Source: Escherichia phage A4. Taken from it: DNA of 64,000 bases. The stretch lies in sequence record ON286972; one strand, given 5' to 3'. The notes beneath the pieces are model-generated. The model worked only from the letters and a program-made list of their open reading frames with translations, made no database searches and was not told where the DNA came from. The position numbers and the translations under genes were made by a program. Shown piece by piece: positions 7,694 to 63,103 of this stretch. Position 1 is the first letter of the stretch; each line of letters opens with the position of its first letter.

Positions 7694-7812
7694 GAAGTTG
7701 TGGAACAATTTCGAATCCAATGATATAATGTTTTCATCGGCAGATGTTAAAATGCAAATCACTTCCTCAATGATTGAGGGTTCTATAAAAAAGAAATAAA
7801 AGGGTATTAACA

Positions 7813-12181: not shown

Positions 12182-12671
<490 letters not shown>

Positions 12672-12688: not shown

Positions 12689-13067
<379 letters not shown>

Positions 13068-18472: not shown

Positions 18473-18921
18473 TTAATCGTGAGTACTTGGGTCGTATGGT
18501 GGGTGCTGCAATTGACATGATGGTAAAAAAGATGTGCCGTTATCATCCATCACAATGGAATGCTTCATATAGCATTGAGATATATGCATATAAACTTCAT
18601 GGGGCTGCAACTTCATTTGAGAAAATTCACTCATTGAGGCTTCACATGTACAGGGGAACCGAACGTACATACACTGTAATTGTGAATTCCGGTGGTGTTA
18701 CATTACATTTAACACCATTTAATGCTGTTAATTTGGATTTAAGTTCAGTTATTGAGAGCACAGAAATCTGTCACATTGAAGTTGGTGCTAATTATCATCC
18801 ATTAACCGAAGAACAGTACTTCCAGATTCAAACTCTACATGATATCCATGACTTGACATATGAAGAAATTCGTGATTTAATAAGATTAAGTGCAATGATT
18901 CCAAATAAGGGTACAGTGTGA
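18454..18921 (+). CDS. hypothetical protein, EE-x-Y-F-Q family (TEEQYFQIQ)
   Basis: ATG with GAGGA SD. Confidence 0.5.
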   Translation: MRFDQVVNREYLGRMVGAAIDMMVKKMCRYHPSQWNASYSIEIYAYKLHGAATSFEKIHSLRLHMYRGTERTYTVIVNSGGVTLHLTPFNAVNLDLSSVIESTEICHIEVGANYHPLTEEQYFQIQTLHDIHDLTYEEIRDLIRLSAMIPNKGTV

Positions 18922-19024
18922 ACGACCACATAACTGTCTGATTTGAATGGGTTGACATTTAACCAATGTAAAAGAATTGTTTCTATATGTAATCGAATTA
19001 CATATGAGTACACGGAGATATAAA

Positions 19025-19471
19025 ATGGCATTTGGTAACATTGAAGAAGTACAACTAGTATTTGAAAACTGTGAAGTTCAAAACTTCAAGTTCACTGACA
19101 TTCTGTACATGTATGTTGGTGATGAATCGCAACGTGCATATCGTTATGCTAATGGTTTGTCAATTGAATCAGTACTGAAGAAGTTTGCTATTGTCTTTAA
19201 GAAAGACACGGAGGCTGATTTTTACAACGGAACTTCATTGGTAGATCGCCTGTCAGAGCGTGATGTTACTCATGTTGTGTTCTTCGGTGCAAATGACAAA
19301 ATGGCATCATATGTCATTGACTGGGGTGAATATGATTCATGTAATATGCAGTACTCAATCAATCAGAGGTTGCAATTTACACCTGATGGACATATCATCT
19401 TCACAAGCAGTACAGAAGATATGATTAAGATTGATGCAGAAGAGATTGATTCTTTTGCGAGGTACATGTAA
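19025..19471 (+). CDS. hypothetical protein
   Basis: track ORF 18977..19471 trimmed to ATG after GGAGAT SD. Confidence 0.5.
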   Translation: MAFGNIEEVQLVFENCEVQNFKFTDILYMYVGDESQRAYRYANGLSIESVLKKFAIVFKKDTEADFYNGTSLVDRLSERDVTHVVFFGANDKMASYVIDWGEYDSCNMQYSINQRLQFTPDGHIIFTSSTEDMIKIDAEEIDSFARYM

Positions 19472-19935
19472 TGCGTCCAGTACTGAAAGATATTAAATCC
19501 AGGAAATATTTTCCTGGGTTTATGGAGTACATCATTGGGTTAGCTGAATCCAAGACTGGACAGAAAGTTGATATCCAACTCGGTGATGTACTGATTTGTG
19601 CAAGATCTTATCGTAATAATTTCATGGACATTTTTGAAAGATCCAATTCGATTCTTGCCTCTCTTGATTTAGAGGGCTATTTAAATGCTAAATTCGTATT
19701 GGATATATACAGTCATGGGTTTTCAATAAGACCTTATAATTCACATTACAATGATGATCCCAAAAACTTCTTTGTGCATGTAGAAAATGTTGACCAATTC
19801 ACTGACCTTAGTGATGAAAGTTACTTTCAGATGCAGGTGGCATATGACCTACAGGACTTGACACGTCAAGAAATCAATGCTATCCTCTATGTATGTTCTA
19901 AATTGAAAGAAAATGAGGTAAGCGGTCGTGTCTAA
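19471..19935 (+). CDS. hypothetical protein, EE-x-Y-F-Q family (SDESYFQMQ)
   Basis: ATG overlapping upstream stop (TAATG). Confidence 0.55.
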   Translation: MRPVLKDIKSRKYFPGFMEYIIGLAESKTGQKVDIQLGDVLICARSYRNNFMDIFERSNSILASLDLEGYLNAKFVLDIYSHGFSIRPYNSHYNDDPKNFFVHVENVDQFTDLSDESYFQMQVAYDLQDLTRQEINAILYVCSKLKENEVSGRV

Positions 19936-25947: not shown

Positions 25948-26372
25948 TGAGAACATACTATAAACTATTACTCGCTCCCTTTTCATTTGGTATTTTATGT
26001 CTAATCGACGTATTATGCACAAAGTATTCGATTAGTACAGTACTTAATCCAGCTTGGTTTACTATTGCTATTGTTGGATACTGCCTGTGTGCGGGTATGG
26101 CTGCTCTTATTACGTTACTAACAATTGCAATGGATAATGACGAGAAAGATAAAAACAGCTTTGCGAATGACTTTGGGTGGAAAACGATCAGTTCAGTAAC
26201 TATTGTACCATTTGCATTACTGACAGTTTATTTCATTCAAATGGGTGAGATCATTCCTGGTGTTGCATCATCAATACTTTTGTTAATGACAATAGTTGTT
26301 CGTTCACGACAAAATTCAATAATCCAAGAGTTTCTTGAACGAGAGGCAAGGGAAGGAACAAAAACATCTTGA
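25947..26372 (+). CDS. multi-pass membrane protein
   Basis: TAATG overlap; hydrophobic helices. Confidence 0.5.
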   Translation: MRTYYKLLLAPFSFGILCLIDVLCTKYSISTVLNPAWFTIAIVGYCLCAGMAALITLLTIAMDNDEKDKNSFANDFGWKTISSVTIVPFALLTVYFIQMGEIIPGVASSILLLMTIVVRSRQNSIIQEFLEREAREGTKTS

Positions 26373-26426
26373 CATAAAATGTGTTAAGGGATATAATTAT
26401 TTTATCAAAACAAAGGAGGGACACAT

Positions 26427-26678
26427 ATGAATCTCGAGGTGGTGAAATCATTAACTGAAGCTTTACAGAAAAATGAAGTCCAATGTCAAGAACTACGTGA
26501 CACTATTAAGGTTGAATACGCACGACTCCAAGGTATGCTTCAAGAATCAGAATGGGTAGTTACTAAAAGCATCGAAGGTATCTACAAAGATATCGAATCA
26601 ATGTTCAATAAGAAAAGTAAGATTGAATCAGATTCTTTTAACAAACGTAAAGAACTAAATGCAGTTTTAGGTATCTAA
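26427..26678 (+). CDS. hypothetical coiled-coil protein
   Basis: ATG ORF with AAGGAGG SD. Confidence 0.55.
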   Translation: MNLEVVKSLTEALQKNEVQCQELRDTIKVEYARLQGMLQESEWVVTKSIEGIYKDIESMFNKKSKIESDSFNKRKELNAVLGI

Positions 26679-26751
26679 GTACTTGACAGTACTGAAATAT
26701 AGGAGTACAATGTACTCCTACTTTAATTGAAAACCAAAAAGGAAAAACACA

Positions 26752-27027
26752 ATGAACTCTATTCTAGTAGCAGTAAACCTGGTTGCTTCTCCGTCTTTTG
26801 ATTTTAAAAAAGTTATTTCTAATAATCTTAAAAACATTTGCCCTGATACTGAACTTACTTTTTGTGTATTCGATTCTGAAAAAGTTACTAAAGTAGATCT
26901 TAATTATCTCATGAACGATGTTAAGAGTGTTCAAGGTAAAACTAATTTAGATGTAGTACGTTCTGTTGCTGACGACTACGATGATGCTCTGATCATTTCT
27001 GAATCTTTTGAAGAGGGTGTACTGTGA
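26752..27027 (+). CDS. hypothetical protein
   Basis: ATG ORF with AAAGG SD after TTGACA-N17-TACAAT. Confidence 0.55.
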   Translation: MNSILVAVNLVASPSFDFKKVISNNLKNICPDTELTFCVFDSEKVTKVDLNYLMNDVKSVQGKTNLDVVRSVADDYDDALIISESFEEGVL

Positions 27028-27491
27028 ATAAATTAGTTCAATGGGTAGAAAAAACTAAGGTCTATCCACCGTCTGAATTGTTTTTCCAAGCAGACTCTAA
27101 GCAAGCCAAGGCAGAAAAACGCGTTGTAGCCATTTGTGAAGACCTTTATAAACTTGAAGTACATACTCTTAGTGATATGCATACTGCGTTCACAGTGCTT
27201 GCCAACGCAGCTAAACGCGATATTCATAACATGAAGATGAAGTACATTGAAGAACTATGCGGTGTGCTTGCATTCCATGTTGAATATTCGGTTAATGCAT
27301 TAGATGCTATGCATAAGAAAGATCCCATCCTCCAAGCTTATTACAAAGGATGGTCAGTAAAAGCTAAAGAGCTAAAGGATGAAATCAAAGCATTACTTAT
27401 TGAATCATTCCCTGATATTGATAAGGCAATGTTACTTTCGGAGATGCAGTACTATTATGATTCTGAAAAAGATAAGGTACTTTCTAAGTAA
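27024..27491 (+). CDS. hypothetical protein
   Basis: GTG start overlapping upstream stop, SD GAGGG. Confidence 0.5.
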   Translation: MNKLVQWVEKTKVYPPSELFFQADSKQAKAEKRVVAICEDLYKLEVHTLSDMHTAFTVLANAAKRDIHNMKMKYIEELCGVLAFHVEYSVNALDAMHKKDPILQAYYKGWSVKAKELKDEIKALLIESFPDIDKAMLLSEMQYYYDSEKDKVLSK

Positions 27492-27888
27492 ACTAATTCT
27501 AAGTAAGCCCAAAGTACAAATACAAGCTCAAGAGGCTTTTGATATATACGAGGCATTGAATAATTGTAATTATGATTTACTCAATAAGCATTGTAGATCC
27601 AAAGTAGCTGTTGATTTGATATGTGAACAAATGGCAGTTAGTAACTTTTCAAAAAATTACAACATTCACTATTTTGGATTTGATGGTTCACCTACAAAAT
27701 TTGATTATAATTATGCTTATGCAGAATTGGTTAAGAGTAAGGAAAACATCAAAATAACTGAATTCATTGCCTTGTATTTTTTCACAAAACTTGGTATAGT
27801 AACTGGATGTAAAGATCCCTTCCCATTTGATAAGGTATTGAAAGGAAGAGAACTTGATATATATTCCGCATTCTTAGATAAGGTGTAG
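27457..27888 (+). CDS. hypothetical protein
   Basis: track ORF 27379..27888 trimmed to internal ATG; start uncertain. Confidence 0.4.
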   Translation: MILKKIRYFLSKLILSKPKVQIQAQEAFDIYEALNNCNYDLLNKHCRSKVAVDLICEQMAVSNFSKNYNIHYFGFDGSPTKFDYNYAYAELVKSKENIKITEFIALYFFTKLGIVTGCKDPFPFDKVLKGRELDIYSAFLDKV

Positions 27889-27889
27889 A

Positions 27890-28387
27890 ATGACTACAGT
27901 ATATGTTGACAAGCGTGTTGGATTATTGCTCACTGATTCACGAGTAACAACCACTACTGAGAGGTACTTTCTCGGATTATTCCCGTTAAAACCAAAAAAA
28001 CAATATGGTGTAGTTACTCAAAAATCATTATACATTCATGATCGTCTGTTTAGTGCCGCAGGTTCAGTGAATGAAATCAATAAAGTCTTGATGTATTTGA
28101 TATATGGTGATATAGTACTGCCCAGTAGAAAAGAGAACTGCCATTGTGTCTTGTTGTCCAAAGATTATTGTATTCACTTAGGAACAAAGAACGGGAAGTT
28201 TTTTAAGTACCTTGAGTTCATGCATGAGGAATATGTGTTCTTCATGGGGAGTGGTGGAGAGTACATGGTTGATGCTGCTGTGCATGAGAACCAAGACACA
28301 CTACTTCAAAAAATATTCAGTACTTTCAAAGAGGTAAAAAACCACGATGAATATACTGACGACAATATTAATGTATACCAATTTTGA
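27890..28387 (+). CDS. hypothetical protein
   Basis: ATG ORF. Confidence 0.55.
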   Translation: MTTVYVDKRVGLLLTDSRVTTTTERYFLGLFPLKPKKQYGVVTQKSLYIHDRLFSAAGSVNEINKVLMYLIYGDIVLPSRKENCHCVLLSKDYCIHLGTKNGKFFKYLEFMHEEYVFFMGSGGEYMVDAAVHENQDTLLQKIFSTFKEVKNHDEYTDDNINVYQF

Positions 28388-28408
28388 TTTTTTCATTAGG
28401 AGAAGTAA

Positions 28409-29371
28409 GTGAAGAAACTAGACTTAAACGCAATTTCCGAAGAAGTACTGGATGAATGTTTTGCGAATGAAGAAGTCAATCCATTGGAAGCAATTGAACC
28501 ATCAGAAGTTATTGAAGATGATATTCCACATAAAGTTCGTAGTAAAAGTAACATTAGTCTCAAGCGTCCAGTAGGTGTGACTAATGAATCCATCATCGAA
28601 GAGATTCGTGCTGGAATTAATGTAAAAAAGAACACTGACCTATTACTTCGTTATAACTATGGTATGATCGTTGATGTTGCTTCAAAGTGTACATGTTATA
28701 TTCCGTTTGAAGATAAAATTGCATATGGTGTAGAAGGTTTTATGCGAGCACTTAAAACCTTTGATCTTAGTAAGAATGTCAAATTCATTACATATGCAAC
28801 AACGTCCGTTTATATGACTATGTATAATGAAAGTTCAGATGCAAATTACATGGTGTACTTACCACGTTATATGAGCGTTCATAACATCCAAGTACGTCGA
28901 TTTAATGAATCATATCAACGTGAACACGGTAAGCGACCTACACCAGAATTAATCTCTGAGAGTACTGGTATCGAGCTTCAGCACGTTAAGAACTGTTTGT
29001 TATACCAGAATGCATATACGACTCTTGATGCACAACTGGGTTCAGATTCAGACGGAACCCTTGGGGATATTCTGAGTTCATCTGCTCGTGATTATAACCT
29101 TAATGTTGATAGCATTTGTAATCCATTACGTTATGCAATCACAGAAATCATTGACGAATTGAGTACTAAAGAACGAGAAATTATCATGCGTGTTCATGGT
29201 CTTGGGGATTACAAAGCAGAAACCCTTCGTGAAATTTCTGATAATGGATATGTTGATGATAAAGGAAACATTGTTAAGTCCCGTTCATCTGTGCACCGAA
29301 AATATAGTGAAGCTATTCAAAAGCTTAAAAAAATAGTACTTGAAAAAGGGTACGAATACGAAGATTTCTAA
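28409..29371 (+). CDS. sigma-70 family RNA polymerase sigma factor
   Basis: region 2-like LLLRYNYGMIVDVA...GVEGFMRALKTFD...KFITYATTSVYM and region 4-like HTH TKEREIIMRVHGLG...TLREIS; GTG start after AGGAG SD. Confidence 0.75.
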   Translation: MKKLDLNAISEEVLDECFANEEVNPLEAIEPSEVIEDDIPHKVRSKSNISLKRPVGVTNESIIEEIRAGINVKKNTDLLLRYNYGMIVDVASKCTCYIPFEDKIAYGVEGFMRALKTFDLSKNVKFITYATTSVYMTMYNESSDANYMVYLPRYMSVHNIQVRRFNESYQREHGKRPTPELISESTGIELQHVKNCLLYQNAYTTLDAQLGSDSDGTLGDILSSSARDYNLNVDSICNPLRYAITEIIDELSTKEREIIMRVHGLGDYKAETLREISDNGYVDDKGNIVKSRSSVHRKYSEAIQKLKKIVLEKGYEYEDF

Positions 29372-29378
29372 AGAAAAA

Positions 29379-29406
29379 GGGTTGACTTAGGTCAGCCCTT
29401 TTTTTA
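29379..29406 (+). terminator. rho-independent terminator (GGGTTGAC-TTAG-GTCAGCCC + T7), same stem family as downstream cassettes
   Basis: hairpin plus T-run right after sigma-factor stop. Confidence 0.65.
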
Positions 29407-29929
29407 TGGGACAAAATGGATGTTCATGATACAATGATATTGTACAATTCTGTTGGCATGGATGACATGAACCTGATCCACTCGAAAATGTAGAGGGCAG
29501 TTGAGCAGTCCAGCAGTGCGAAGTGCAGAAGAAACCCGTCAGATGTGGGCATATTATGAACCCCTCACGGCAATGCGGCACTATAAAGAACCACGTTAGG
29601 ATGGCTGGTGGTTCCTCGATAGACATATAAGGATAACACCTTACGAATTATCTAAGGGAGAGTTATCAAATTTTGTACAGGAAAGTTGCGTCCAAAATTT
29701 GAGTACTCACATTAAGTATTTGATTGCATAGATACTTAATGAAGATACACTATGTTTAAAAGTGTAGACCGTCATATGAAACTGAAGTAGAGAGAAACAG
29801 GATGACCCGCTTTCGTACTCATTAAGAGTAATCTTCAATGCAATAGCTCTGATACCATCAGCGTCAAATTCCCCTCCCAGCGGGGGGAAGAAAAATCCCT
29901 TCCTCAAATCCCGTCAATATTAAAAGTCC

Positions 29930-29958
29930 TTGACAGTTATTAATCATTCGCGTAGAAT
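29930..29958 (+). promoter_or_regulatory. sigma70-type promoter (TTGACA-N17-TAGAAT)
   Basis: hexamers upstream of gene 30023. Confidence 0.5.
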
Positions 29959-30022
29959 ACGTAGTATTAGAAGCGAACAGACATCTCGAAGAGATGGATG
30001 ACTAACTATTAAGGAACATTCA

Positions 30023-34023: not shown

Positions 34024-34244
34024 ACAGATACGTGATTGAATACGTGGGTATATCTGAATTTGATAACATTCGTGGCTATGAAAAGGTCATGAGTGAACGC
34101 ACGATATATGTTAGGGGTCGCGATGAAGCCCATGTTCTCTCTTTACTGTTAAATGACCTGACAAAGTTCAATACAACAAAGACACAACGTTATATTGAAA
34201 CAATTAAATCTATTAAACTTTTAGACGAGGATGATGAAGAATGA
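34020..34244 (+). CDS. hypothetical protein
   Basis: ATGA overlap. Confidence 0.5.
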   Translation: MNRYVIEYVGISEFDNIRGYEKVMSERTIYVRGRDEAHVLSLLLNDLTKFNTTKTQRYIETIKSIKLLDEDDEE

Positions 34245-51216: not shown

Positions 51217-53241
51217 TTATTTGTGTTTTATGTGTAAAGTGTCTAATATTGTATTGAACAATGATTTAGCAGAAATCATGATTACTTGATCAAAATCTTT
51301 AGTATAAGAAATATTAGCAGTACTGGAAGAATCTTTCACCTCATCCGGTAATGCATCAAACTCTTCTTTTTCCATAATCTTTTCAAGTTCTTCACGAGAA
51401 ATGGCTTTTACGTTTTCAATAGTCCTTAGTTGTATATTATAATCTTTATAATACGAAACTAAGTTCGTTGCGTATGAACCATCTTTAGATGCTGTTCCAG
51501 TAAAATCATAACATCCTGTATCAGTACTAACCCAATCGATTTTCCCTGAACTACCACTATATACACCTTTGTTGAACTTAATGTTAACAACATCACCAAT
51601 AGTTTTCAATATACCACCTTTACATTCATTAAATGCGTTTAATTGATAACTTGTAGTCATATAGAATTTCGGTTCTAATGTAACAGTATCACCTACAGTT
51701 GCTTTCATATCAGAAACACTTAAGAACAATTCATTAAATCCTTTTGAATAAGTCTTGGTAATTGTTGTTCCATCCCTGTTAGTTACTGTGTATTCTAAGT
51801 CCAATTCACAAATACTATTCAATGATAAGTAAGGGATATCAAATTTATCAGTACTAGCATCATAAGGACATCTTGAGGATGGTAGTATACCAGTAGGGTT
51901 TGGTACGTATTGAACTTTTGTTAACTCATACCCGCTTGCATTCGCTGGTGTAACTGTAATAGACGGTGTAGATATTCCTTTCATTCCACAGAAGTATATG
52001 TTATCTGGAAAATCATTTATTACGAAGTCAGTGACAGGAATATCATAAGTATCTTTATCAGTCCAATTAAGAACAACATTAGAACTGGTTGGATCAACAA
52101 TATGTTCACTAGAACCACAGAAATATACTGATTTGGTATTAGTAATCATTAGTAATGTTTTGGATGATGAGTTCAATTCAAGAACATCTTTCACTTCAAG
52201 ACCAGATGGTAATGTCAATGGTAACTTCGTAAATGATGTTAAATCTTGTTCATCTTTAACACCACTAGTCCCCGCCGGAAACTTACCTGAACCATAGAAA
52301 ACACCTTTATTCGTCATGAAATACATGAACGGGGTTGATGTTCCTTTGTCAAATAGTTGAATGTCATCACATGTTAAACCATCAGGTAAATCCACTTTAG
52401 ATGGAGTTCTATAAACACCAGGCTTAATACCACCTTCACCATTACTTACATCACCTAGTACATATAAATCTTTACCTAGTTTCAAGAACATTGATTTATT
52501 TTTAGCACACAAGAATGTATCATATGATTTATCATCAATTGGTAGCTTGGTATATTCGGTGTATGTAGGCATTGAATCATCAATCCACGAACTATCACCA
52601 CTAATGTAAATGTGATTGTTTCTGTCAATATAATATGAATACACATCAGTACTGTTCATATATAAAGCATTTAGTGCATTTGTTTTCACTAAGTGATTGA
52701 ACTTAAGAACTTGTTTTCCATCGTACTTATGGGAGTTGACACCAATATCACCATTTAGGCTACTACCAATTGAATATATATGACCACGTGGTAATAGAAC
52801 TTGAACACCACTTTTGGTTAAATTATATTTGGAGTGCAAGAGATCGTTATATACAACTCTAACTTTCTTAAAGATATCAGTACATTCAATCCACGATTTA
52901 GATGGTGTACCATCCATTCCTATTATTGCCGGATCACCATAATAATAAGCTTTATTTTCATATGATATTTTAAAAGATGATTTACCATCTTTTGTATTAG
53001 CACTGAAGTACACATCTTTACTATCTTTAATTGGATAAGTACTATTCTCTACAAAAGTATTATATGAGATATCGTTGTTAGCACTATTAAGAACAAAAGA
53101 AGTAGATGTACTATTGGACTTATAGACTGCTACGGAAGATGTATCACTGAAATCAATTTTAGTGAACGTATCTTTGTATGTTTCGTTTAATAATCCTACA
53201 TAAAAAACATCAGTGCCATCCATCAGTAACGAATATAGCAT
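51217..53241 (-). CDS. large beta-propeller-like protein with RCC1-type motifs (array member 10, no MLPFVRM leader)
   Basis: 674-aa ORF; motifs such as KDLYVLGDVSNGEGG; start may be the in-frame ATG at 53223. Confidence 0.6.
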   Translation of the reverse strand: MLYSLLMDGTDVFYVGLLNETYKDTFTKIDFSDTSSVAVYKSNSTSTSFVLNSANNDISYNTFVENSTYPIKDSKDVYFSANTKDGKSSFKISYENKAYYYGDPAIIGMDGTPSKSWIECTDIFKKVRVVYNDLLHSKYNLTKSGVQVLLPRGHIYSIGSSLNGDIGVNSHKYDGKQVLKFNHLVKTNALNALYMNSTDVYSYYIDRNNHIYISGDSSWIDDSMPTYTEYTKLPIDDKSYDTFLCAKNKSMFLKLGKDLYVLGDVSNGEGGIKPGVYRTPSKVDLPDGLTCDDIQLFDKGTSTPFMYFMTNKGVFYGSGKFPAGTSGVKDEQDLTSFTKLPLTLPSGLEVKDVLELNSSSKTLLMITNTKSVYFCGSSEHIVDPTSSNVVLNWTDKDTYDIPVTDFVINDFPDNIYFCGMKGISTPSITVTPANASGYELTKVQYVPNPTGILPSSRCPYDASTDKFDIPYLSLNSICELDLEYTVTNRDGTTITKTYSKGFNELFLSVSDMKATVGDTVTLEPKFYMTTSYQLNAFNECKGGILKTIGDVVNIKFNKGVYSGSSGKIDWVSTDTGCYDFTGTASKDGSYATNLVSYYKDYNIQLRTIENVKAISREELEKIMEKEEFDALPDEVKDSSSTANISYTKDFDQVIMISAKSLFNTILDTLHIKHK

Positions 53242-54154
53242 TTCTATTATTACATAAAGAAGTAATATTTTTTACTACTTTATTTGAATTATAGTTTGGT
53301 AACTTCTTTAATCCACGAACAAAATTATCACAAATAATACCAGTACCATAGAAGTTATAATCTTTATCACAGTATATAAATGCTGTATCATATGGTGAAG
53401 TACTTAAATTCTTATAGAATGGGAATGGAGTGAATGTGAATTGTAGAACCTTACGCAATTCCCCTACTGTCTCTGTTGGGAATTGTCTGTTTTTATTATT
53501 ACCAATAAAAACAACTCTATCTGTTAGGAATGTGTACATAATTCCATATGGTTTTACGTACAAATCATTATATCCCAATGATAATTTAGTTGGTGATGTT
53601 AGTGGTCCTGAGTTTATTTTGGTTTGATTAATTGAAAACTCATTAGAATTATAACCAGCCCCATATGTATTACCATTAGTACTTAAATAATATACAGTAG
53701 CTTCCCCTGCTCCAAGAAAAGTCTTTACATCAGTTGCTAACGTTTTTTGGAAAGTTGGATAAAATTTATTATATGTTCCCGTTCCCATCATCAGTTCACC
53801 ATTGCGGTTATGACCACGAGCATATAGAATACCTTTGTCTGTATCTAAGAAGAACATACCATTATATGTTTTGTAAATCTTACCTTTTGTAATATCGAAA
53901 TTGGAAAAATCATCACTAATATCAATGAATATTGTCTCAAGATTATCTTCAAGGGAGTTTAGAGATTTACCACAATACCATACTGAGTTATCTTTTTTAA
54001 CAGCAACACAACCACACGGACTGGCATCAAAATATGTTACATCGGAAAGAACCAGAGATAAGTTCTTTGTACTGCAATAGTTATCCATTGCATATAAATC
54101 GGAATCTTTAAGTATATATACGGAATTCCCAACCGCTTTAATCGAATTTATCAT
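53210..54154 (-). CDS. RCC1-like beta-propeller protein (array member 9, no MLPFVRM leader)
   Basis: track ORF starts TTG at 54244; trimmed to ATG (MINSIK) after GAGGA SD; motif GILYARGHNRNGELMMG. Confidence 0.55.
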   Translation of the reverse strand: MINSIKAVGNSVYILKDSDLYAMDNYCSTKNLSLVLSDVTYFDASPCGCVAVKKDNSVWYCGKSLNSLEDNLETIFIDISDDFSNFDITKGKIYKTYNGMFFLDTDKGILYARGHNRNGELMMGTGTYNKFYPTFQKTLATDVKTFLGAGEATVYYLSTNGNTYGAGYNSNEFSINQTKINSGPLTSPTKLSLGYNDLYVKPYGIMYTFLTDRVVFIGNNKNRQFPTETVGELRKVLQFTFTPFPFYKNLSTSPYDTAFIYCDKDYNFYGTGIICDNFVRGLKKLPNYNSNKVVKNITSLCNNRNAIFVTDGWH

Positions 54155-54373
54155 GTTTATATCCTCATAAATTGATACCAATTCTAATGTATTTACCCAC
54201 TTAAAGTACAAAAAATGATCAATTAAATGGGGAATCTTTAACAAATGAATTCATGATGTACTTGATGAATTGCCCATACCAACGGATTCCTCAGTCCCAG
54301 CATACCACATGGTATTATCGAACTTTTTATCATTGTAGTATCATAACCACACCAAACATCATCAACATTAGTA

Positions 54374-55726
54374 TTACAACAATTGTATTTCTGTGAGTGT
54401 TTGATATGTTGTACCGTTGTACACACCTCTCCAATATACCCTACCTTCAGTACTAACCACTAATAATCCATATGTTGTAAACCCAAGAGTACCACCAACA
54501 TACATAGCATCTTTAATTCGAATACCAATGTCTTCATATGTAAATGAAGCGACTGCTCCCGCTTGCCACGAAGGACTAGCGTAGTAATCACTATAAACAC
54601 CATGTGCTTTATATATTGATGTTGTTCCTGGTTCAAAAATTACAGTTCCACAGTAGTTCATTCGTATTTTAGTACTGGATGAAGTCGGTACATTTATACC
54701 TATGCCATCTTTTATCCCTGTAGTTAGGACGTTAAAACCACCCGCCACACGGTTGACGTCATTCTCACCGATTAAAAACATACCAACGTTGTAGCCCATA
54801 TAATATACACTGCTACTGCCATTCCAGAAAGAAAAACCACCACCATTACCACAGCGATATAGTTGTGAATTTGAGCAGTACATCATACCTTCGTTTGTCG
54901 CATCAAATTCATCTGCTGTTCCTATTGTAGCTACAGTAGTCCACGTTTTAATCACTTGGTTTGTACTAGCTGGTGTTTGTATACCATATCGTATATTATA
55001 TCCCTTACCAACGATTGTACCATCTTCTAATTTAGCATAAAGTACAGGTCTATTACCAACAAAATACATATTATTGTGTGACATGTCTATTGTGCATCTT
55101 AATGAAACTACTTTTTGTGTCAATTGATTATCTTTAGTAAAAGAAGTAAAGTAGTAATCCGATGTTGAGTTGTTTATTAAACCTTGTATTGACAATCCCA
55201 TATACCAGATTTCACCATTGCTGTTTAATGCTGCCAAAATACAACTATATTTTGAAGTGTATGCTGGTGATGTTGTTGAAGTTGCTGGTCCTTTATCATA
55301 TCCACCACAGAATACCATCTCCACAACTTCACCTACGTTCGAAAAATAAGAAGATACATTGATAAAACCATTTGTTATAAAAGGTGCTGTATTCATACTT
55401 GAATGTGTGAATATCCCATTTGCATATACACCACAAAAATGATATGAACCATCATTATCTTGGACTATTATTCCATTTGATAGTAACCAAAAATTGTTTA
55501 CATTTTTTCTTACTAATTCAACTCCTGCACCATTGGTTGGTGTTATACCAAAAGAAACATATTTTGTTTGACCAATACCATATAAATTTCCATTAGTTGC
55601 TAGTATTGCACCAAACCAGTTCCCACCACCATTCCTATCATGACCCATACCAATGGAGTCAAATTTCTTCACAGTAGGGACTTCAACTTTATTCCCATAC
55701 TCTAGCATTCTAACAAAAGGTAACAT
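54374..55726 (-). CDS. RCC1-like beta-propeller protein with MLPFVRMLEYGN leader (array member 8)
   Basis: SD AGGAGG then ATG MLPFVRMLEYGNKVEVP; motif GNLYGIGQTKYVSFG. Confidence 0.7.
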   Translation of the reverse strand: MLPFVRMLEYGNKVEVPTVKKFDSIGMGHDRNGGGNWFGAILATNGNLYGIGQTKYVSFGITPTNGAGVELVRKNVNNFWLLSNGIIVQDNDGSYHFCGVYANGIFTHSSMNTAPFITNGFINVSSYFSNVGEVVEMVFCGGYDKGPATSTTSPAYTSKYSCILAALNSNGEIWYMGLSIQGLINNSTSDYYFTSFTKDNQLTQKVVSLRCTIDMSHNNMYFVGNRPVLYAKLEDGTIVGKGYNIRYGIQTPASTNQVIKTWTTVATIGTADEFDATNEGMMYCSNSQLYRCGNGGGFSFWNGSSSVYYMGYNVGMFLIGENDVNRVAGGFNVLTTGIKDGIGINVPTSSSTKIRMNYCGTVIFEPGTTSIYKAHGVYSDYYASPSWQAGAVASFTYEDIGIRIKDAMYVGGTLGFTTYGLLVVSTEGRVYWRGVYNGTTYQTLTEIQLL

Positions 55727-55801
55727 ATATCCTCCTTTATTCATTATATTATATTTAATCAAAAAAGAAAAGCCAGTACAGAGTACTGGCATTTAAAATA
55801 A
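55727..55801 (-). repeat. conserved intergenic cassette (terminator hairpin GCCAGTAC...GTACTGGC + T-run, AT-rich TATAAT-containing promoter-like segment, AGGAGG SD)
   Basis: minus-strand reading TTTAAATGCCAGTACTCTGTACTGGCTTTTCTTTTTTGATTAAATATAATATAATGAATAAAGGAGGATAT-ATG; recurs 6 times. Confidence 0.65.
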
Positions 55802-56977
55802 TCAAAATGTAGGAAGTTTGAATTCTCTCATAACAGATGAACTGCTTGCAGATACATTATCTGGTGATTTCCCTGCGTAGTATAATTTATTATCAATGAA
55901 CATATACAATGTTGCATCATTTCCTGCTACAAGTGATTCACTTTTCTTAAATTTAACACCACTAGGTAAAATTGCTTCAACAAATGAACCTGATTCTCTT
56001 GTAGTATTATTTGCCAATTGACCATTGTTATTATAACCAGTACTATAAATTTTACCTGAACTATAATATACGAGTCCACGAGTACTAGTGTTTTCTATTC
56101 GAATGAATTCACTATCATCTGGGACTGTAGTTGATAGAACTGGGTTTAACTTATAAGCAGATGATACATTATTATTACCCAATTGACCATAACCTTGAAA
56201 GCCTAGTGTATACATAGGACATGATTCTGGTGTGCCTTTTGTTATAATACCAATATAATTCACACTACAAAAAATGTCTATTGCTTCTGTAATAGGTGTA
56301 CCCTTATATTGAACCCAAGGGAATACATACGATTGTTGCTTACCATTTCCCAAAGTACCGGAAGTTGTTGTCCCAGTACGCCACATTGTATCATCAAGTT
56401 TAATAATCCAGTTAGCTGTCGTTATCGATGAACAGAATTTTTTAACATTATCCACTAAAAATGTAAATTGATTATAATATGATGCAGTGTTTATACCAAA
56501 CTTAGCACCAGTATTATCACCTAACAAATATAAACTATTATCTGTACCTAAAATCAAAGCATAATCATAACCCACGTATATATCTTTAATTCTTGAAATT
56601 CCAAATTGTGTAAAATAGCTTGTACATTCTGTGAATGTTGTTATATTATTGGTTGTATTATTACCTAGCCATTTATCTAAACCACTATAAAAGAATCTAT
56701 CATCATTTGTGCGTATTAGACAAAAAGCGTTCATTGTACTGCACCAAAAATCTTTAACATTGCTATATATTTTTGTCCATTCAGTTACTGCATTAGTATG
56801 ACCTAAACCAAAAATTCCACCATTCTGAAGACCAATAGCCCATATTGAACCATTTTTATCAAGCATCATTGTACATGTATGTGAATAACCACCCGATGGT
56901 GTAACTAATTTAACAAAATTGGGAATATATGGTAAAACTTTATTTCCATAATCCAACATTCTAACAAAAGGTAACAT
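55802..56977 (-). CDS. RCC1-like beta-propeller protein with MLPFVRMLDYGN leader (array member 7)
   Basis: SD AGGAGG + ATG; motifs GSIWAIGLQNGGIFGLG, GKIYSTGYNNNGQLANNT. Confidence 0.7.
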   Translation of the reverse strand: MLPFVRMLDYGNKVLPYIPNFVKLVTPSGGYSHTCTMMLDKNGSIWAIGLQNGGIFGLGHTNAVTEWTKIYSNVKDFWCSTMNAFCLIRTNDDRFFYSGLDKWLGNNTTNNITTFTECTSYFTQFGISRIKDIYVGYDYALILGTDNSLYLLGDNTGAKFGINTASYYNQFTFLVDNVKKFCSSITTANWIIKLDDTMWRTGTTTSGTLGNGKQQSYVFPWVQYKGTPITEAIDIFCSVNYIGIITKGTPESCPMYTLGFQGYGQLGNNNVSSAYKLNPVLSTTVPDDSEFIRIENTSTRGLVYYSSGKIYSTGYNNNGQLANNTTRESGSFVEAILPSGVKFKKSESLVAGNDATLYMFIDNKLYYAGKSPDNVSASSSSVMREFKLPTF

Positions 56978-57048
56978 AATTCCTCCTTTATTCATTATAC
57001 TATATTTAATCAAAAAAGAAATGCCAGCATCAAGTACTGGCATTATTG
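56978..57048 (-). repeat. conserved intergenic terminator/promoter/SD cassette
   Basis: hairpin ATGCCAG...CTGGCAT + T-run + ATATAGTATAATGAATAAAGGAGG. Confidence 0.6.
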
Positions 57049-58239
57049 TTATAGTTGTCTTGGTGTATCAAGTACATATCTATTTGTACTAGGACCACCA
57101 TCATCATACGTTCCGGTTGAATATATATTTTTCATATCAGCAGTTAGAAAAGTACGATACGAACCGCGATATATTTTTATTTTATCATACATAGAATATG
57201 ATATTTCTGCTGGCATTGGACATATAGTAAATCTACCAATAGTAACATTAGAACCAACACCCAACGAACCAGCATAACTACTCGCATTTAAACCAGTTGC
57301 ATATACACCAGTACTCGTAACTAGTATACTAGATTGTGTTGGGTATCCTGTATGAATTGAATACAAAGTTCCAGTTGGTAATGTCGTACTATTGCTCCCT
57401 AATACAGCAAGTGCCGAACTGGTTGTGGTATTGTTACCCCATGCACCATTACTCGCTAAACCACCAACTAGAAACTGACGTGCACCAGTACTTGGATTCT
57501 CAACCAAAGCACTGACTGCACCACTTGAGCATCCAGTGTATTGTAACGTTTTTGTGTATGTTGTACTTGGTTTATATAAAGTATATTCATTAAATGGTGT
57601 CCATGTGGTACTGGTACTTATACCTGACGTACCACCACCAATATATAAATTATTTTGTGTATCAAAAAACATTACACAGTTATTTGTTGACTGTATTTGT
57701 GCAATATCAACATTAGGCGTGACAGCTTTTACAAATGATCCATCTGTTATTTGTTGAGTACTACCAGTACCATCAGCGAATTGTCTAGCCCCACTCCAAC
57801 CAGTACTCCATATTGTATTATTATCCATTAATACCGTAAACCACGTAGTACCTCCATACATCTGTTTAATTGAAGTACTTGAACTTTGCGTGTACAAATT
57901 TTCAATATATTGGTTATAACTTAAAAACGTAGTAGTACTAGTTGGTAAACCAATATGATCACCATATCCACAATAAAAATAATTTGAGTCATTATCTTGT
58001 ACTAACAAAGTTCCTTGTGACACCCAGAAATCTTTAACATTTTCTCTAATTAAGGTCCATGACTTTACTGCATTACTATTTCCTATACCAAACTTCCCAA
58101 AACTATTATTTCCACGTGCGTATAGTTGACCATCCGTATAAAGAACGACAACATCTAAATCAGTTGGTGTTATTTTCTTAATTTGAATAGGGACTGGTGT
58201 TATATTCCCATAATCAAACATTCTAACAAAAGGTAACAT
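57049..58239 (-). CDS. RCC1-like beta-propeller protein with MLPFVRMFDYGN leader (array member 6)
   Basis: SD GGAGGG + ATG; motif GQLYARGNNSFGKFGIG. Confidence 0.7.
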   Translation of the reverse strand: MLPFVRMFDYGNITPVPIQIKKITPTDLDVVVLYTDGQLYARGNNSFGKFGIGNSNAVKSWTLIRENVKDFWVSQGTLLVQDNDSNYFYCGYGDHIGLPTSTTTFLSYNQYIENLYTQSSSTSIKQMYGGTTWFTVLMDNNTIWSTGWSGARQFADGTGSTQQITDGSFVKAVTPNVDIAQIQSTNNCVMFFDTQNNLYIGGGTSGISTSTTWTPFNEYTLYKPSTTYTKTLQYTGCSSGAVSALVENPSTGARQFLVGGLASNGAWGNNTTTSSALAVLGSNSTTLPTGTLYSIHTGYPTQSSILVTSTGVYATGLNASSYAGSLGVGSNVTIGRFTICPMPAEISYSMYDKIKIYRGSYRTFLTADMKNIYSTGTYDDGGPSTNRYVLDTPRQL

Positions 58240-58310
58240 ATTTCCCTCCTTTATTCATTATACTATATTTAATCAAAAAAGAAAAGCCAGTATCAAGTAC
58301 TGGCCTATAT
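58240..58310 (-). repeat. conserved intergenic terminator/promoter/SD cassette
   Basis: same cassette family (GCCAGTACTTGATACTGGC hairpin). Confidence 0.6.
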
Positions 58311-59480
58311 TTAAACTGGTGAATCTAATACAAATTCTAAACTACTAATGCCACCATATGTGACATTTGTCCCTGTGCTATATACAAAATTACCATCAGT
58401 TATATAAGTTCGGTTATACCCACCTGCCATCTGCGACTTACTATAATCAAACCCATCAGGAACGATTGCTTTGGTATATACTAATGCATTATTAGATGTA
58501 CCAATACCTAACATACCAGCTCCTGAAGATTTATTGTAGCCGCAACAATATATACCATCTGTTGTAGCAATAACTTGGTTATAATATGAAGTAATGTTAG
58601 CAATGCTTACTACATCACCGGGTGGCATTAGTGAAGCAGTTTGAACCTCAAATGCTCTATAATCACTGAGAGAACCATTTATCCCATCTGCTTGTGCACC
58701 AAATATTCTCGAACCGCCATTTGCGATGATGGTTTTACCAGTGGGATCAGTACCAATTGCCATTGCCATTGAAGTACTATTCTCCATATAGTACTTGATA
58801 TTAATTGTATTTCTTAAGCTGGTAGGAGCACCATAATATATAGTATATAACTTACCTCCTGAACTTGTAACTGCATTTACTCTTCCTGTATAAAATAGCC
58901 ATCCTTGGTTTGTAACATAACCGTGCATTAAATTACTTGCAAACAATTTAACAGGTAATTGATCTGCTGCGGTCGGAACAGTACTTTTGACGAATTTTCT
59001 AGCAACATTGTTAGTTGTTGTCCCATCACCCAACTGACCATCACCCCCTGCTCCAGTACTCCATATTGTTTGGTCTGTTAGTAATACACTTGTAGTCTGA
59101 TAACTAACTGCTATATCTAATATTGGTAATGTTAACGTATCGAATGTTGGCATAGCAGAAGTCCATATTGATACTGCTGCCCCTGGCATACCAACAGTTG
59201 TTGAACTTCCACTGTACCATATTTCATCATTGCTTTTCTTAATAACTATCGACGTGGCTCCCATCCAAAAATCTTGAACATCAGAAGTGCTAAAAGTCCA
59301 TGTAGTAACAATATTTTTGTGACCTAAACCCAAAAGACCATTTGTATTCTCACCACGCACATATAAATCACCACTGTTTGTTAAAACAGCAACATTATAG
59401 TTGTTAGCTAGTATTTTTTTAATATTTGGTTTAGCAGGTGCAATATTCCCATACTCTAACATTCTTACAAAAGGTAACAT
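58311..59480 (-). CDS. RCC1-like beta-propeller protein with MLPFVRMLEYGN leader (array member 5)
   Basis: track ORF extends upstream into cassette; trimmed to SD-proximal ATG; motif GDLYVRGENTNGLLGLG. Confidence 0.7.
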   Translation of the reverse strand: MLPFVRMLEYGNIAPAKPNIKKILANNYNVAVLTNSGDLYVRGENTNGLLGLGHKNIVTTWTFSTSDVQDFWMGATSIVIKKSNDEIWYSGSSTTVGMPGAAVSIWTSAMPTFDTLTLPILDIAVSYQTTSVLLTDQTIWSTGAGGDGQLGDGTTTNNVARKFVKSTVPTAADQLPVKLFASNLMHGYVTNQGWLFYTGRVNAVTSSGGKLYTIYYGAPTSLRNTINIKYYMENSTSMAMAIGTDPTGKTIIANGGSRIFGAQADGINGSLSDYRAFEVQTASLMPPGDVVSIANITSYYNQVIATTDGIYCCGYNKSSGAGMLGIGTSNNALVYTKAIVPDGFDYSKSQMAGGYNRTYITDGNFVYSTGTNVTYGGISSLEFVLDSPV

Positions 59481-59550
59481 AATTCCTCCTTTATTCATTA
59501 TATTATATTTAATCCAAATAAGAAAGCCAGTATCAAGTACTGGCATTGTG
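59481..59550 (-). repeat. conserved intergenic terminator/promoter/SD cassette
   Basis: same cassette family. Confidence 0.6.
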
Positions 59551-60660
59551 TTATTTCGGTAAATCAATTTTAGTAAAGACTGCAACATCCTCGCTTGCAC
59601 CGGGAATGGCGTAATACGTTCCAGTACTATATACATCTCCATTTTTGGTTAATATTGAAGTCAAACCATCACTAAAAAGAACATCCCTAATCTCACTAAC
59701 TTCAACGGGTAATTGTAAATTTGTAGCACTATATATAGCACCAGTTTGAGAATTGTTTAATCCCAAACCACGGTTCGCCCCAACACCCTTCTGATATGTA
59801 CTGGTAATTACCATTTGTGTAGCAGTATTTAATGCAGGTGAATTCGTCATAAACAACGGAGAACTATTAGGCAAAGTACTTACAGGAACTGCACGGAATG
59901 TAGTCGTACCTGAACTAAGAAAGTTTGGAGTTTGACCACATACGAAATATGATGTACCATTATAGTAATTAAATGCATTACCACCAATCGCTGCATCGAT
60001 TACACCAGAACTACGTAATCCCCAAGTGTTAATTTGTGTTTGGTCCCCTGTACCATGCTGCCCACTGCTATTCCATCCAGAACTATATAGCTTATTATCT
60101 AATGTAATATACATACTATCATTTGCATTAGTCATTACTTTACGCACGTTAGTAGCACATTGAGTTAATGTGTAAATCGATGATGAGCCAATACCTAAAG
60201 AACCACGATATCCATTATCTCCTGCACCATAGAGTACTGAACTAGTGCTAAGTACAAATATTAAACCATTTGTACATACAATATTAGCAATTTCACTCAC
60301 TGGTATAGCATTGGTAAACCAATTAGTCCTTTCAACTAATATAGTACTGTAAGAAGTAGTTGTAGAAGATGAGAACCAGTACGTTTCACCCGATGTCCAT
60401 ATCGTATTATCATTTTTAATAATAACAAGTGTACGACCACCCACGAAAAAATTAGAAACATCTGAACTTACTAATATCCATGAAGATACCGTGTTGTTAT
60501 TACCATTTCCAGATTCACCACCTTGATTTCTACCTATGTAATATAAATCATGTGAATCAGTCAATAAGAATTGACCCTGTGTAGAAGCACCAACTTTAAT
60601 TATATTTTTAGGACCGGGTACAATATTCCCGTACACTAACATTCTTCCAAAAGGTAACAT
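59551..60660 (-). CDS. RCC1-like beta-propeller protein with MLPFGRMLVYGN leader (array member 4)
   Basis: SD AGGAGG + ATG; motifs HDLYYIGRNQGGESGNG, NKLYSSGWNSSGQHGTG. Confidence 0.7.
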   Translation of the reverse strand: MLPFGRMLVYGNIVPGPKNIIKVGASTQGQFLLTDSHDLYYIGRNQGGESGNGNNNTVSSWILVSSDVSNFFVGGRTLVIIKNDNTIWTSGETYWFSSSTTTSYSTILVERTNWFTNAIPVSEIANIVCTNGLIFVLSTSSVLYGAGDNGYRGSLGIGSSSIYTLTQCATNVRKVMTNANDSMYITLDNKLYSSGWNSSGQHGTGDQTQINTWGLRSSGVIDAAIGGNAFNYYNGTSYFVCGQTPNFLSSGTTTFRAVPVSTLPNSSPLFMTNSPALNTATQMVITSTYQKGVGANRGLGLNNSQTGAIYSATNLQLPVEVSEIRDVLFSDGLTSILTKNGDVYSTGTYYAIPGASEDVAVFTKIDLPK

Positions 60661-60733
60661 AATTCCTCCTTTATTCATTATACTATATTTAATACAAAAA
60701 AGAAAAGCCAGTACTCTGTACTGGCATATTACA
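60661..60733 (-). repeat. conserved intergenic terminator/promoter/SD cassette
   Basis: same cassette family (GCCAGTACAGAGTACTGGC hairpin). Confidence 0.6.
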
Positions 60734-61876
60734 TTATTTCCACGGTAGAAGTGAATCAGGAACTCTGGTTGGTACTCTAACGGCTGGAACATTTCCAAGT
60801 TCAGGTAAACCACTCATATACAAATTGTTATTTTCATCAATTATCATTGAATAGAAATTATCAATTACGAAGCCTGAAATTCGTCTTCCTTCTAATGCAT
60901 CAAGAACCATTTCGGTGAAAGTTAGTATATTTTCGGATGTTTGATTAACACCACATGCACCATAGGTATTTCGACCACAAGTATATAACTTATTATTATT
61001 TTTAACAACACATCCATTCCCTTCGTTGTTGGATAAACCACCCACCAACTCTATTTCACCTTGGAATGATAAATTGGGAATTAATGTACTCATTGGTACT
61101 GCTGATACTGTACCTACACCAGCTTGACCATATGCATTTGGTGAAGCAACCTTCACTGAACCATCATTAAGAAATATATATGAAGTACGGTATGTATTTA
61201 CAGCTTGTATAGCATTGGTGATAGTATTGTCTTTTGTAAAACTTAATATATTTGATGTTTTTGTACTACCAGGAGCAACAGTATTTCCTGCATACCAATA
61301 GGAGCCATCATCAAGTACTAACCCAGTACTGAGCAAAGAACAGCCATAACTTTTAACATTTTCTATAGTGCTGTATCTGAACGATGTGACATTAGCTGTT
61401 GACGCGTTACCAAATACACCACCTTCGCCAGAACCACAGTAGAACCATTTTCCATTTTTTAAAAATACACGCAAATTCTGCCCAACAGCAATACCATCAA
61501 TATCATCAGCACTGACACCAAAATCAGTGAAGTACTGGGTTACATCAATCCAAACCCCATTTGTATTTGTTCCGATTTGTGGCATTACTATACTAGCACC
61601 TGTGAACCAAATAGTTCCATCATTCTTAATGGCAATGGAACCAAGAACACCACCCCAGTAACGTTCAATATTATTATTCACACGGGTCCATACGGTGGAT
61701 GATTGTAATGAACCATTACCACCTTGTCCAAATGAAGATGAACCATACCAGTACAAGTCACCATTAACATGCAAATAAAAACGAGTATTATAATTTGCTT
61801 GTAATCTATTTTTAAATAGAGGTTTTGGTTCCGGTGCAATATTCCCGTACTCTAACATTCTAACAAAAGGTAACAT
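60734..61876 (-). CDS. RCC1-like beta-propeller protein with MLPFVRMLEYGN leader (array member 3; near-duplicate of member 2)
   Basis: 380 aa; N-terminus MLPFVRMLEYGNIAPEPKP and C-terminus ...VPTRVPDSLLPWK shared with 61949..63091. Confidence 0.75.
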   Translation of the reverse strand: MLPFVRMLEYGNIAPEPKPLFKNRLQANYNTRFYLHVNGDLYWYGSSSFGQGGNGSLQSSTVWTRVNNNIERYWGGVLGSIAIKNDGTIWFTGASIVMPQIGTNTNGVWIDVTQYFTDFGVSADDIDGIAVGQNLRVFLKNGKWFYCGSGEGGVFGNASTANVTSFRYSTIENVKSYGCSLLSTGLVLDDGSYWYAGNTVAPGSTKTSNILSFTKDNTITNAIQAVNTYRTSYIFLNDGSVKVASPNAYGQAGVGTVSAVPMSTLIPNLSFQGEIELVGGLSNNEGNGCVVKNNNKLYTCGRNTYGACGVNQTSENILTFTEMVLDALEGRRISGFVIDNFYSMIIDENNNLYMSGLPELGNVPAVRVPTRVPDSLLPWK

Positions 61877-61948
61877 AATTTCCTCCTTTATTCATTATAC
61901 TATATTTAATACAAATAAGAAATGCCAGTACTCTGTACTGGCATTATA
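61877..61948 (-). repeat. conserved intergenic terminator/promoter/SD cassette
   Basis: same cassette family. Confidence 0.6.
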
Positions 61949-63091: not shown

Positions 63092-63103
63092 AATTCCTCC
63101 ATA

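Follow-up and report, generated by a model that had tools for sequence, protein, structure and literature searches.

The 64,000-nt stretch of Escherichia phage A4 analysed here (record ON286972; hereafter the window) carries at positions 28409 to 29371 a gene for a sigma-70-family sigma factor, and the question raised by this locus is which promoters such a factor would have the host RNA polymerase read. The answer that we prefer, with a probability of about 0.55 and on the grounds of sequence comparison, is that the phage sigma is the reader of one conserved set of promoters, called class b below, and would thereby bring about the switch from early to middle transcription.

A divergent member of the sigma-70 family

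The gene and the signals next to it are:

28409..29371, + strand: sigma-70-family sigma factor gene, from the listing of open reading frames (ORFs), with a GTG start, 320 aa and a TAA stop
28398..28402, + strand: ribosome-binding site AGGAG, from reading of the sequence, 6 nt 5' of the GTG
29379..29405, + strand: intrinsic terminator of the sigma operon, with an 8-bp stem GGGTTGAC/GTCAGCCC, the loop TTAG and T7

The ORF is exact and contains all peptides quoted from it in the initial annotation (DVASK, GVEGFMRALKTFD, KFITYATTSVYM, TKEREIIMRVHGLG and TLREIS), and its GTG start is backed by homologs whose alignment begins at residue 1 (MKKLDLN...). The equivalent of the hairpin at 29379-29405 is annotated as a terminator in the G17 record.

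The product is a genuine sigma-70-family member in which regions 2, 3 and 4 are all present. In Pfam, Sigma70_r3 matches residues 161-225 with 43.7 bits (cut-off 25.3), Sigma70_r2 reaches 23.4 bits, slightly under its cut-off of 24, and Sigma70_r4, covering region 4.1, scores 17.8 bits against a cut-off of 24.1; PF04542 is a precomputed match in most homologs. The initial annotation had pointed to regions 2 and 4 as the recognisable ones; it is region 3 that stands above its Pfam cut-off, whereas regions 2 and 4 fall under theirs but are recovered by the family profile and the structural model. That profile, made from 17 homologous sequences, matched SigA, RpoD, RpoS and SigB in the PDB with E of about 1e-27, and most of its alignments end near residue 278, where region 4.2 begins, with Pseudomonas RpoS entries reaching 314-315. 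An AlphaFold (AF2) model built on the 17-homolog alignment returned sigma factors only as top Foldseek matches in the PDB (probability 1.0), with low TM-scores, as expected for a free multi-domain sigma. PHROG 351, 'RNA polymerase sigma factor', was the sole PHROG matched (E 2.4e-50), neither 234 nor 12791 being hit. The family identity originally proposed is thus borne out by Pfam, NCBIfam, PHROG, PDB profile and AlphaFold/Foldseek evidence alike.

Among NCBIfam models the best is RpoD_Cterm (E 2.3e-26, from residue 79), followed by RpoS, SigB and FliA/SigF models. RpoD_Cterm scores 92.8 bits against a cut-off of 354, and the RpoD, SigA and RpoS equivalog models give 50-93 bits where cut-offs are 354-1020, which places the protein outside the group 1 equivalogs. 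Because these scores lie so far under cut-off, the GenBank label 'rpoD' is a family label and not a statement of orthology. The ratio of nonsynonymous to synonymous change (dN/dS) against the G17 ortholog is 0.15 at a synonymous divergence (pS) of 0.59, indicating purifying selection. A pseudogene or chance ORF was considered as well and is ruled out by this ratio together with conservation over the full length.

The phage sigma was aligned to Escherichia coli RpoD, in agreement with hidden Markov model (HMM) alignments and by hand for the 582-599 part of sigma4. With confidence given as the predicted local distance difference test (pLDDT), its regions are:

28409..28552, + strand: acidic N-terminal region, aa 1-48, predicted disordered (pLDDT < 50), with 13 D/E and 5 K/R
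28556..28834, + strand: sigma1.2-like helix and sigma2, aa 50-142, pLDDT 75-90, from RpoD and HMM alignments
28865..29008, + strand: sigma3, aa 153-200, from Pfam Sigma70_r3 and the alignment, confident in AlphaFold
29132..29359, + strand: sigma4 helix-turn-helix, aa 242-317, pLDDT 82-88, with helices at 253-263, 273-279 and 292-312
29240..29278, + strand: insertion of about 8 residues in the sigma4 turn, a beta-hairpin at aa 278-290 (DSSP strands 281-282 and 288-289)

The protein is divergent, with a partial sigma1.2, sigma2, sigma3 and sigma4, and is without a folded region 1.1: no match to that region is among the Pfam matches, and the first 48 residues are acidic and disordered in the model. 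The 3.2 linker is also predicted to be disordered by AlphaFold. At the N-terminus lies a family motif, MKKLDLNxIxEEVLDECF, in which L4 is invariant and L6, I9, L14 and F18 are almost so. The scaffold of sigma2 is retained (N83 = N383, D102 = D403, F118 = F419, D119 = E420 and Y129 = Y430 of RpoD), as are G107, G110, F126, T128 and A130 and the conserved FxTYA motif; F118, D119, Y129 and N83 are residues that we take to line the pocket for -11A.

The residues that give sigma-70 its specificity have largely been exchanged. The WW dyad is lost (W433/W434 to T132/S133), Q437/T440 have become M136/Y139, and the extended -10 readers H455 and E458 have become Y154 and V157. The recognition helix reads S291-R-S-S-V-H-R-K-Y299, so that T583-R-E-R-I-R-Q589 of sigma-70 is replaced by S291-R-S-S-V-H-R297: E585, R586, R588 and Q589 become S, S, H and R, and the equivalent of R584, R292, is kept. 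It is the only one kept among 10 sigma-70 specificity residues from W433 to Q589, and the RpoD set of specificity residues is accordingly missing from the protein, which is not an RpoD equivalog. Within sigma4, D283, G286, R297 and Y299 are invariant, and the turn insertion occurs in every family member. What the phage sigma shares with the group 1/2 factors RpoD, RpoS and SigA is therefore their place as its best profile and fold matches, the domain order sigma1.2-2-3-4 and an RpoS-like size; it differs from E. coli RpoD in having neither the region 1.1 domain nor the non-conserved region (NCR), in its replaced specificity residues and in the insertion in the helix-turn-helix.

A conserved acidic-aromatic tail, GYE(Y/F)EDF, ends the protein (aa 311-320, 29339-29368). 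This tail and the N-terminal motif (aa 1-20, 28409-28470) lie outside the canonical domains and could bind partners.

An established component of RaK2/121Q-like jumbo phages

By megablast the window is closest to the Asteriusvirus jumbo phages (121Q, PBECO4, G17, phAPEC6, Sharanji and others), with nucleotide identities of about 80% around the sigma gene and 85-88% elsewhere. The phage sigma was found by tblastn in 83 phage records across the RaK2-like clade, many of them annotated 'RNA polymerase sigma factor'. Its amino acid identity is 73% at full coverage to 121Q-type phages, about 61% to the Ecwhy_1/fEgEco12 type, 42% to RaK2 and K64-1, 38% to Munch and SE_PL, 33-36% to EJP2, GAP32, CBB (34%) and Erwinia, Serratia, Yersinia and Xanthomonas jumbo phages, and 33% to Eneladusvirus. 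The best match in named phages stands at 73%, and a 99% identical protein is known from assemblies only; the closest cellular sigmas are 25-29% identical.

The RaK2-like sigmas (121Q gp167, PBECO4, G17_00146, Sharanji 'RpoD', RaK2_00244, GAP32 and CBB_513) are full-length collinear orthologs that share the MKKLDLN motif, the lost WW dyad and the sigma4 turn insertion with D283/G286; the window protein differs from them as a new sequence variant, 73% identical to the best named one. The locus itself corresponds to that of G17 and ECO103 in its early-region position, upstream ORFs, terminator and downstream noncoding RNA. CBB_513 has been described as an early-region product with regions 2, 3 and 4, from a phage that also has a gp55-like protein (PMC5259590), and Iyer et al. 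list phage sigmas, minimal and RpoD-like, as a defining trait of their 'group 2' jumbo phages (PMC7824862). The gene is further mentioned in the Sharanji, phAPEC6 and fEgEco12 papers, while a literature search found no functional, transcriptome or in vitro study of a RaK2-like sigma.

The complete relative used here is ECO103 (OR844650.1, 121Q-type, 351,992 bp), which has one ortholog of the phage sigma, at 18823-19788 and 73% identical. It also has a separate 279-aa gp55-like ORF that matches PHROG 12791, 'sigma factor for late transcription' (E 2.7e-154), and PHROG 234, the T4 gp55 family (E 8.4e-18). With T4 gp55 as a phmmer query against all ECO103 ORFs the E value was 0.1, and the candidate was confirmed by the PHROG profiles; a tblastn search of the phage collection with T4 gp55 as query returned 2026 records, among which Asteriusvirus membership is not discernible.

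The view that a complete sigma-70-type factor is unusual in a T4-like context does not hold, because the clade carries an annotated and published ortholog throughout, and this sigma and a gp55-like late one occur together in a 121Q-type genome. The gene belongs to the ordinary equipment of RaK2/121Q-like jumbo phages and had been annotated there before. Like T4 gp55, its product would be a phage-encoded specificity factor for the host core polymerase, and RaK2-like phages resemble the T4 late system in also having a gp55-like protein and TAAATA-type late promoters similar to T4 TATAAATA (PMC5259590). T4 gp55, however, is without sigma3 and sigma4, which the window protein has, and ends in SLDFLYEAND, whose SLDFLY binds the clamp; the window protein is outside the gp55 family and has no SLDFLY motif.

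Predicted early expression of the phage sigma

The sigma gene is the last in a co-directional run of small ORFs:

26369..26397, + strand: perfect host sigma-70 promoter TTGACA-N17-TATAAT, heading the operon that ends with the sigma gene
26683..26711, + strand: second early-type promoter TTGACA-N17-TACAAT (11/12 match), inside the same operon
26427..28387, + strand: five small co-directional early ORFs, syntenic with 121Q genes 163-166 / G17_00150-147

Because perfect host-type promoters lie upstream, the phage sigma is predicted to be an early product of the host sigma-70 holoenzyme. The window has 21 TTGAC[AT]-type consensus promoters where 0.73 are expected, all of them on the + strand and many with A-rich UP-like tracts. 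ECO103 has 42 such early sites (3.7 expected), clustered at 0-63 kb and 300-322 kb around its own sigma gene, in agreement with the early region described for CBB (PMC5259590). A generic promoter/terminator scan was uninformative in bulk (56 sites against 56.2 expected), and it is the perfect-consensus subset and the strand bias that carry information.

Some of these early promoters resemble each other beyond their core elements. Those at 13025, 13434, 31285, 31632 and 42875 (+) share TATAAT-GTTT(A/G)TATCAA 3' of the -10 element, those at 37635, 44392, 45121 and 47113 (+) share TATAAT-(C/T)ATTTCATC, and some also share GTAC directly 5' of the -35 element. It appears that early promoter cassettes were copied along with the initial transcribed region, or that selection acts on them.

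Three of the ORFs upstream of the sigma gene were tested against Pfam and gave no match. The ORF at 27890-28387 (+) begins MTTVYVDKRVG..., and its Thr at position 2 recalls what we take to be the pattern of N-terminal-nucleophile (HslV/proteasome-like) hydrolases, a likeness unconfirmed by Pfam.

Class-b promoters

In ECO103, the strict class-b pattern G[GA]GAC[AG]-N13/14-[TG]Gn-TA[TC]AAT occurs at 19 sites against 0.13 expected, and 19/19 lie on the coding strand. Their consensus is T-GGGACA-N12-G-TGA-TATAAT, or in general form T-G(G/A)GACA-N13-TGn-TATAAT. The genes downstream include those for the topoisomerase II large subunit, an exonuclease, the DNA primase, single-stranded DNA-binding protein (SSB), a Dda-like helicase, a Nudix hydrolase and a 109-aa 'transcriptional regulator' (phrog_639). 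The gp55-like sigma gene lies 58 nt 3' of the class-b site at 134559, and class b also precedes tRNAs and the structured RNA treated below.

For CBB and GAP32, a 'divergent RpoD-like' promoter TGAAACG...TATA has been described near DNA-synthesis and gp55-like genes (PMC5259590), and class b of ECO103 is clearly the same class. A CBB-type pattern search (TGAAACG...TATA) gave nothing meaningful in the window, the class of this clade having another box. Scanned with a class-b position weight matrix (PWM), for which the shuffle maximum was 10.8, the window gave three hits:

12453..12480, + strand: best class-b promoter in the window, TGGACA-N13-TGATATAAT (TGA-TATAAT), PWM 33.0
29408..29435, + strand: class-b promoter GGGACA-N13-TGA-TACAAT, PWM 29.6, the only strict match in the window (0 expected)
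7702..7729, + strand: weaker class-b-like site GGAACA-N13-TGA-TATAAT, PWM 20.6, in the intergenic gap 7694-7812

Eleven nt 3' of the best of these begins a tRNA gene:

12491-12580, + strand: tRNA-Ser, first of six tRNA genes in a cluster that reaches to 15560

The equivalent class-b site of ECO103, at 34114, also precedes tRNA-Ser, and the phage tRNAs may belong to the same (middle) regulon. At the position of 29408-29435, relatives have GGGATG..TGATATAAT or TGAAACC..TGGTATAAT.

Two class-b-driven genes of ECO103, both in a replication/late-transcription neighbourhood, have sizes that recall T4 late transcription. One, at 109927-110658(-), encodes 243 aa (phrog_12062) and is of the size of the T4 gp45 clamp; the other, at 114295-114624(-), is the 109-aa phrog_639 gene, of the size of the T4 gp33 co-activator. 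The authors of the CBB paper found no gp33/gp45 homologs (PMC5259590), and according to Iyer et al. a gp33 ortholog is present in group 2 phages (PMC7824862).

What the phage sigma would read

In the sequence of events that we propose, the phage sigma would be made early, from an operon with perfect host sigma-70 promoters, would then bind the host core RNA polymerase, as its family membership suggests, and would redirect the polymerase to the class-b 'middle' promoters. The gp55-like sigma would next read TAAATA late promoters, including those of the RCC1 array described below. Transcription would thus pass from host sigma-70 (early) to the phage sigma (middle) and on to the gp55-like sigma (late).

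The pairing of the phage sigma with class b is suggested by the way in which box and recognition helix differ between clades. Before orthologous copies of the structured RNA, the -35 box is GGGACA in Asteriusvirus and 7t3 (GGGATG in 121Q and GGGAAG in one paralog) and GAAACC in CBB, GAP32, Serratia BF and Yersinia Yen9-03, with equal spacing in both clades and TG(A/G)TATAAT in all of these promoters. Because the box varies with the phage clade, it is unlikely to be read by an invariant host sigma-70. The recognition helix is S-R-x-S-x-H-R in the window, G17 and Munch and S-K-A-T-L-S-R in CBB and BF. Helix positions differing between the clades are those of sigma-70 R584 and R588, which we take, from classical suppressor genetics, to contact -31 and -33. 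The bases -32A and -31C are common to all variants of the box and the R584 equivalent stays basic (R or K), while E585, R586, R588 and Q589 are replaced and the 5' half of the box goes from TT to GG.

A similar order of events, with the host sigma used early and a phage sigma later, is known from SPO1 (gp28, then gp33/34), phiEco32 (gp36) and Salmonella phage 7-11 (gp47) (PMC13401047, PMC8948821), and gp47 of 7-11 recognises a promoter of two elements separated by 16 nt, an arrangement like the one proposed here for the phage sigma. These factors differ from it in being experimentally proven and in being much more divergent or smaller. The phiEco32 gp36 is without region 4 and reads a single element (PMC8948821), whereas the phage sigma keeps all three domains for binding DNA and core; its proposed promoter also keeps the canonical TATAAT.

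Several observations weigh against this assignment. The link from sigma to promoter is drawn from sequence, and the promoter classes were derived from upstream regions of ECO103 and spot-checked in the window by PWM. The covariation of helix and box rests on two clades; RaK2 does not provide a clean third case, as its R..H helix goes with a cTGAACG box in the one promoter that was read. Several residues of sigma-70 region 2.2 are altered (Q406A, E407Y and N409V), which bears on core binding. Host sigma-70 can use an extended -10 element without a -35 element, and the perfect TGnTATAAT of class b would be usable by it, while the phage sigma is without the TG-reading residues of the host factor (H455 to Y154, E458 to V157).

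These last points lead to the explanation that comes nearest to competing, in which host sigma-70 reads class b through the extended -10 element, a separate phage activator binds the GGGACA/GAAACC box in the manner of MotA/AsiA, and the phage sigma has its targets elsewhere. T4 middle promoters work by such sigma appropriation (AsiA/MotA). The box keeps GACA, 4/6 bases of TTGACA, and candidates for an activator exist in the 109-aa 'transcriptional regulator' and other small proteins. We nevertheless consider this explanation unlikely. AsiA and MotA homologs were absent from ECO103 and the window by phmmer with T4 queries, a weak negative for small, fast-evolving proteins. With its 16-17 nt spacer the box stands exactly as far from the -10 element as a sigma-type -35 element would, and it varies between clades together with the sigma4 helix. 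Furthermore, inspection by eye of 89 ECO103 upstream regions without early or late motifs revealed no fourth conserved promoter-like class, and the phage sigma would then be left without any class.

Late motif and the RCC1-like array

The initial annotation had suggested that the phage sigma could direct AT-rich boxes in front of beta-propeller genes. These belong to the following features:

51217-64000, - strand: tandem array of paralogous RCC1-like beta-propeller genes (PF25390, E 1e-14 to 1e-19)
55731..61909, - strand: six identical 28-nt boxes TTAAATATAGTATAATGAATAAAGGAGG before RCC1-like genes (6 matches against 0 expected)
55731-55758, 56982-57009, 58245-58272, 59485-59512, 60665-60692 and 61882-61909, - strand: positions of the six boxes

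RCC1_2 is above cut-off in one of the beta-propeller proteins, and phAPEC6 has been reported with eleven RCC1-like beta-propeller genes (PMC7247149). The array looks like a cassette that was duplicated together with its regulatory signals.

The motif TAAATA is found 223 times in ECO103 where 716 are expected from a first-order model, a 3.2-fold counter-selection, and 69/223 of the sites are found 5-80 nt before the start of a gene, in most cases a large gene in the part from 65 to 225 kb. In the window it occurs 37 times (121 expected), ATAAATA 8 times (39 expected) and TATAAATA once (11-12 expected). This is the signature of a putative late-promoter core that is avoided in the rest of the genome. 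The RCC1 boxes (TATTAAATATAGTATAATG) combine this TAAATA core with TATAAT and a ribosome-binding site, and TAAATA stands 27 nt before the ATG, as in ECO103 late promoters. They lack a -35-type box and also a TGn extended -10 (TAG-TATAAT), and the class-b PWM gave no match on the array strand of the window. With such a core, without a -35-type box and without a class-b match, the array would most simply consist of late genes read by the gp55-like factor.

Use of the boxes by the phage sigma itself, for example in a -10-only mode, is conceivable because their TATAAT is exact and the phage sigma keeps the residues that we take to form the -11A pocket. We regard it as improbable all the same. In the two boxes read (58245 and 61882), a GCCAGTACTTGATACTGGC-type terminator hairpin and its T-run lie directly upstream, at the -35 position; the counter-selected TAAATA core, the missing TGn and the missing PWM match argue in the same direction, and the gp55-like late sigma would be available for such motifs. 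The boxes suggested as sigma targets are here placed in the late TAAATA class.

Still less probable is a phage sigma without a promoter class of its own that competes for core in host shut-off or replaces sigma-70 at TTGACA early promoters, for although it is closest to group 1/2 sigmas, is an early product and has an acidic N-terminus reminiscent of region 1.1, the sigma-70 residues for TTGACA and TG specificity are replaced, and purifying selection on the recognition helix and the family insertion argues for specific reading of DNA.

A multi-copy structured RNA downstream of the sigma gene

The strict class-b promoter of the window lies between the sigma terminator and a noncoding element:

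29442..29921, + strand: conserved structured RNA of about 480 nt with approximate ends, supported by covariation, behind the class-b promoter 29408-29435

Neither G17 nor 121Q has an annotation for the 650-nt gap at 29372-30022, which follows the sigma gene. Identity to 121Q-type phages is about 94% at 29436-29935, and columns in an alignment of the entire gap are 97% identical on average; the synonymous sites of the sigma gene (pS 0.59) are far more diverged than this adjacent RNA. By blastn, the RNA is present in 70 records over the whole RaK2-like clade, with about 70% identity where proteins have about 33%; this level is seen in CBB, GAP32, BF and Yersinia phages. Most RaK2-like genomes have 3-5 copies, ECO103 four, and those that were partly matched (RaK2 and XaC1) have 1-2, with one full-length copy in RaK2. 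The loci examined are unannotated or carry very short hypothetical ORFs.

RNAalifold predicted 75 pairs in 12 helices from nine sequences, 38/75 with compensatory changes. Of the cells, 98.2% are paired, against 41-48% in controls with slid partners, and 103 are compensatory, against 5-14 in the slid controls; 0/500 shuffles reach the observed value. Single-sequence folding was not significant (z = -1.41), the structure being visible in comparative analysis only. Rfam has no family that matches the RNA at the gathering threshold or at E <= 5. A 17-base signature of the RNA was found at 36 loci in IMG/VR, mostly on contigs of 350-378 kb and otherwise on contigs of 4-174 kb, with <=3 per contig.

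Every RNA copy examined is preceded by a class-b promoter, and the copy in the window is presumably transcribed from the one at 29408-29435. Highly expressed noncoding RNAs of similar size have been reported for PA5oct, a relative (PMC7318152). This is apparently a multi-copy structured RNA family that is new to description.

Implications

The call of the sigma gene adds little in itself, as dozens of genomes carry an annotation for the family and several papers mention it. The RNA family may prove more interesting than the sigma gene, being large, supported by covariation, clade-wide and absent from Rfam. What changes for the phage sigma is that a factor of unspecified role becomes part of a testable sigma/promoter pairing with coordinates and of a three-step cascade, in which R292 and H296 (K and S in the other clade) are named as the helix residues to match with bases of the box. 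If true, the pairing would provide an orthogonal sigma/promoter pair on the E. coli core polymerase and thus a useful part for synthetic biology. For the family as a whole, it is possible, at somewhat short of even odds, that the sigma and its clade-specific -35 box are co-evolving and define the middle regulon of all RaK2-like phages, which would include replication genes, the gp55-like sigma, tRNAs and the structured RNA.

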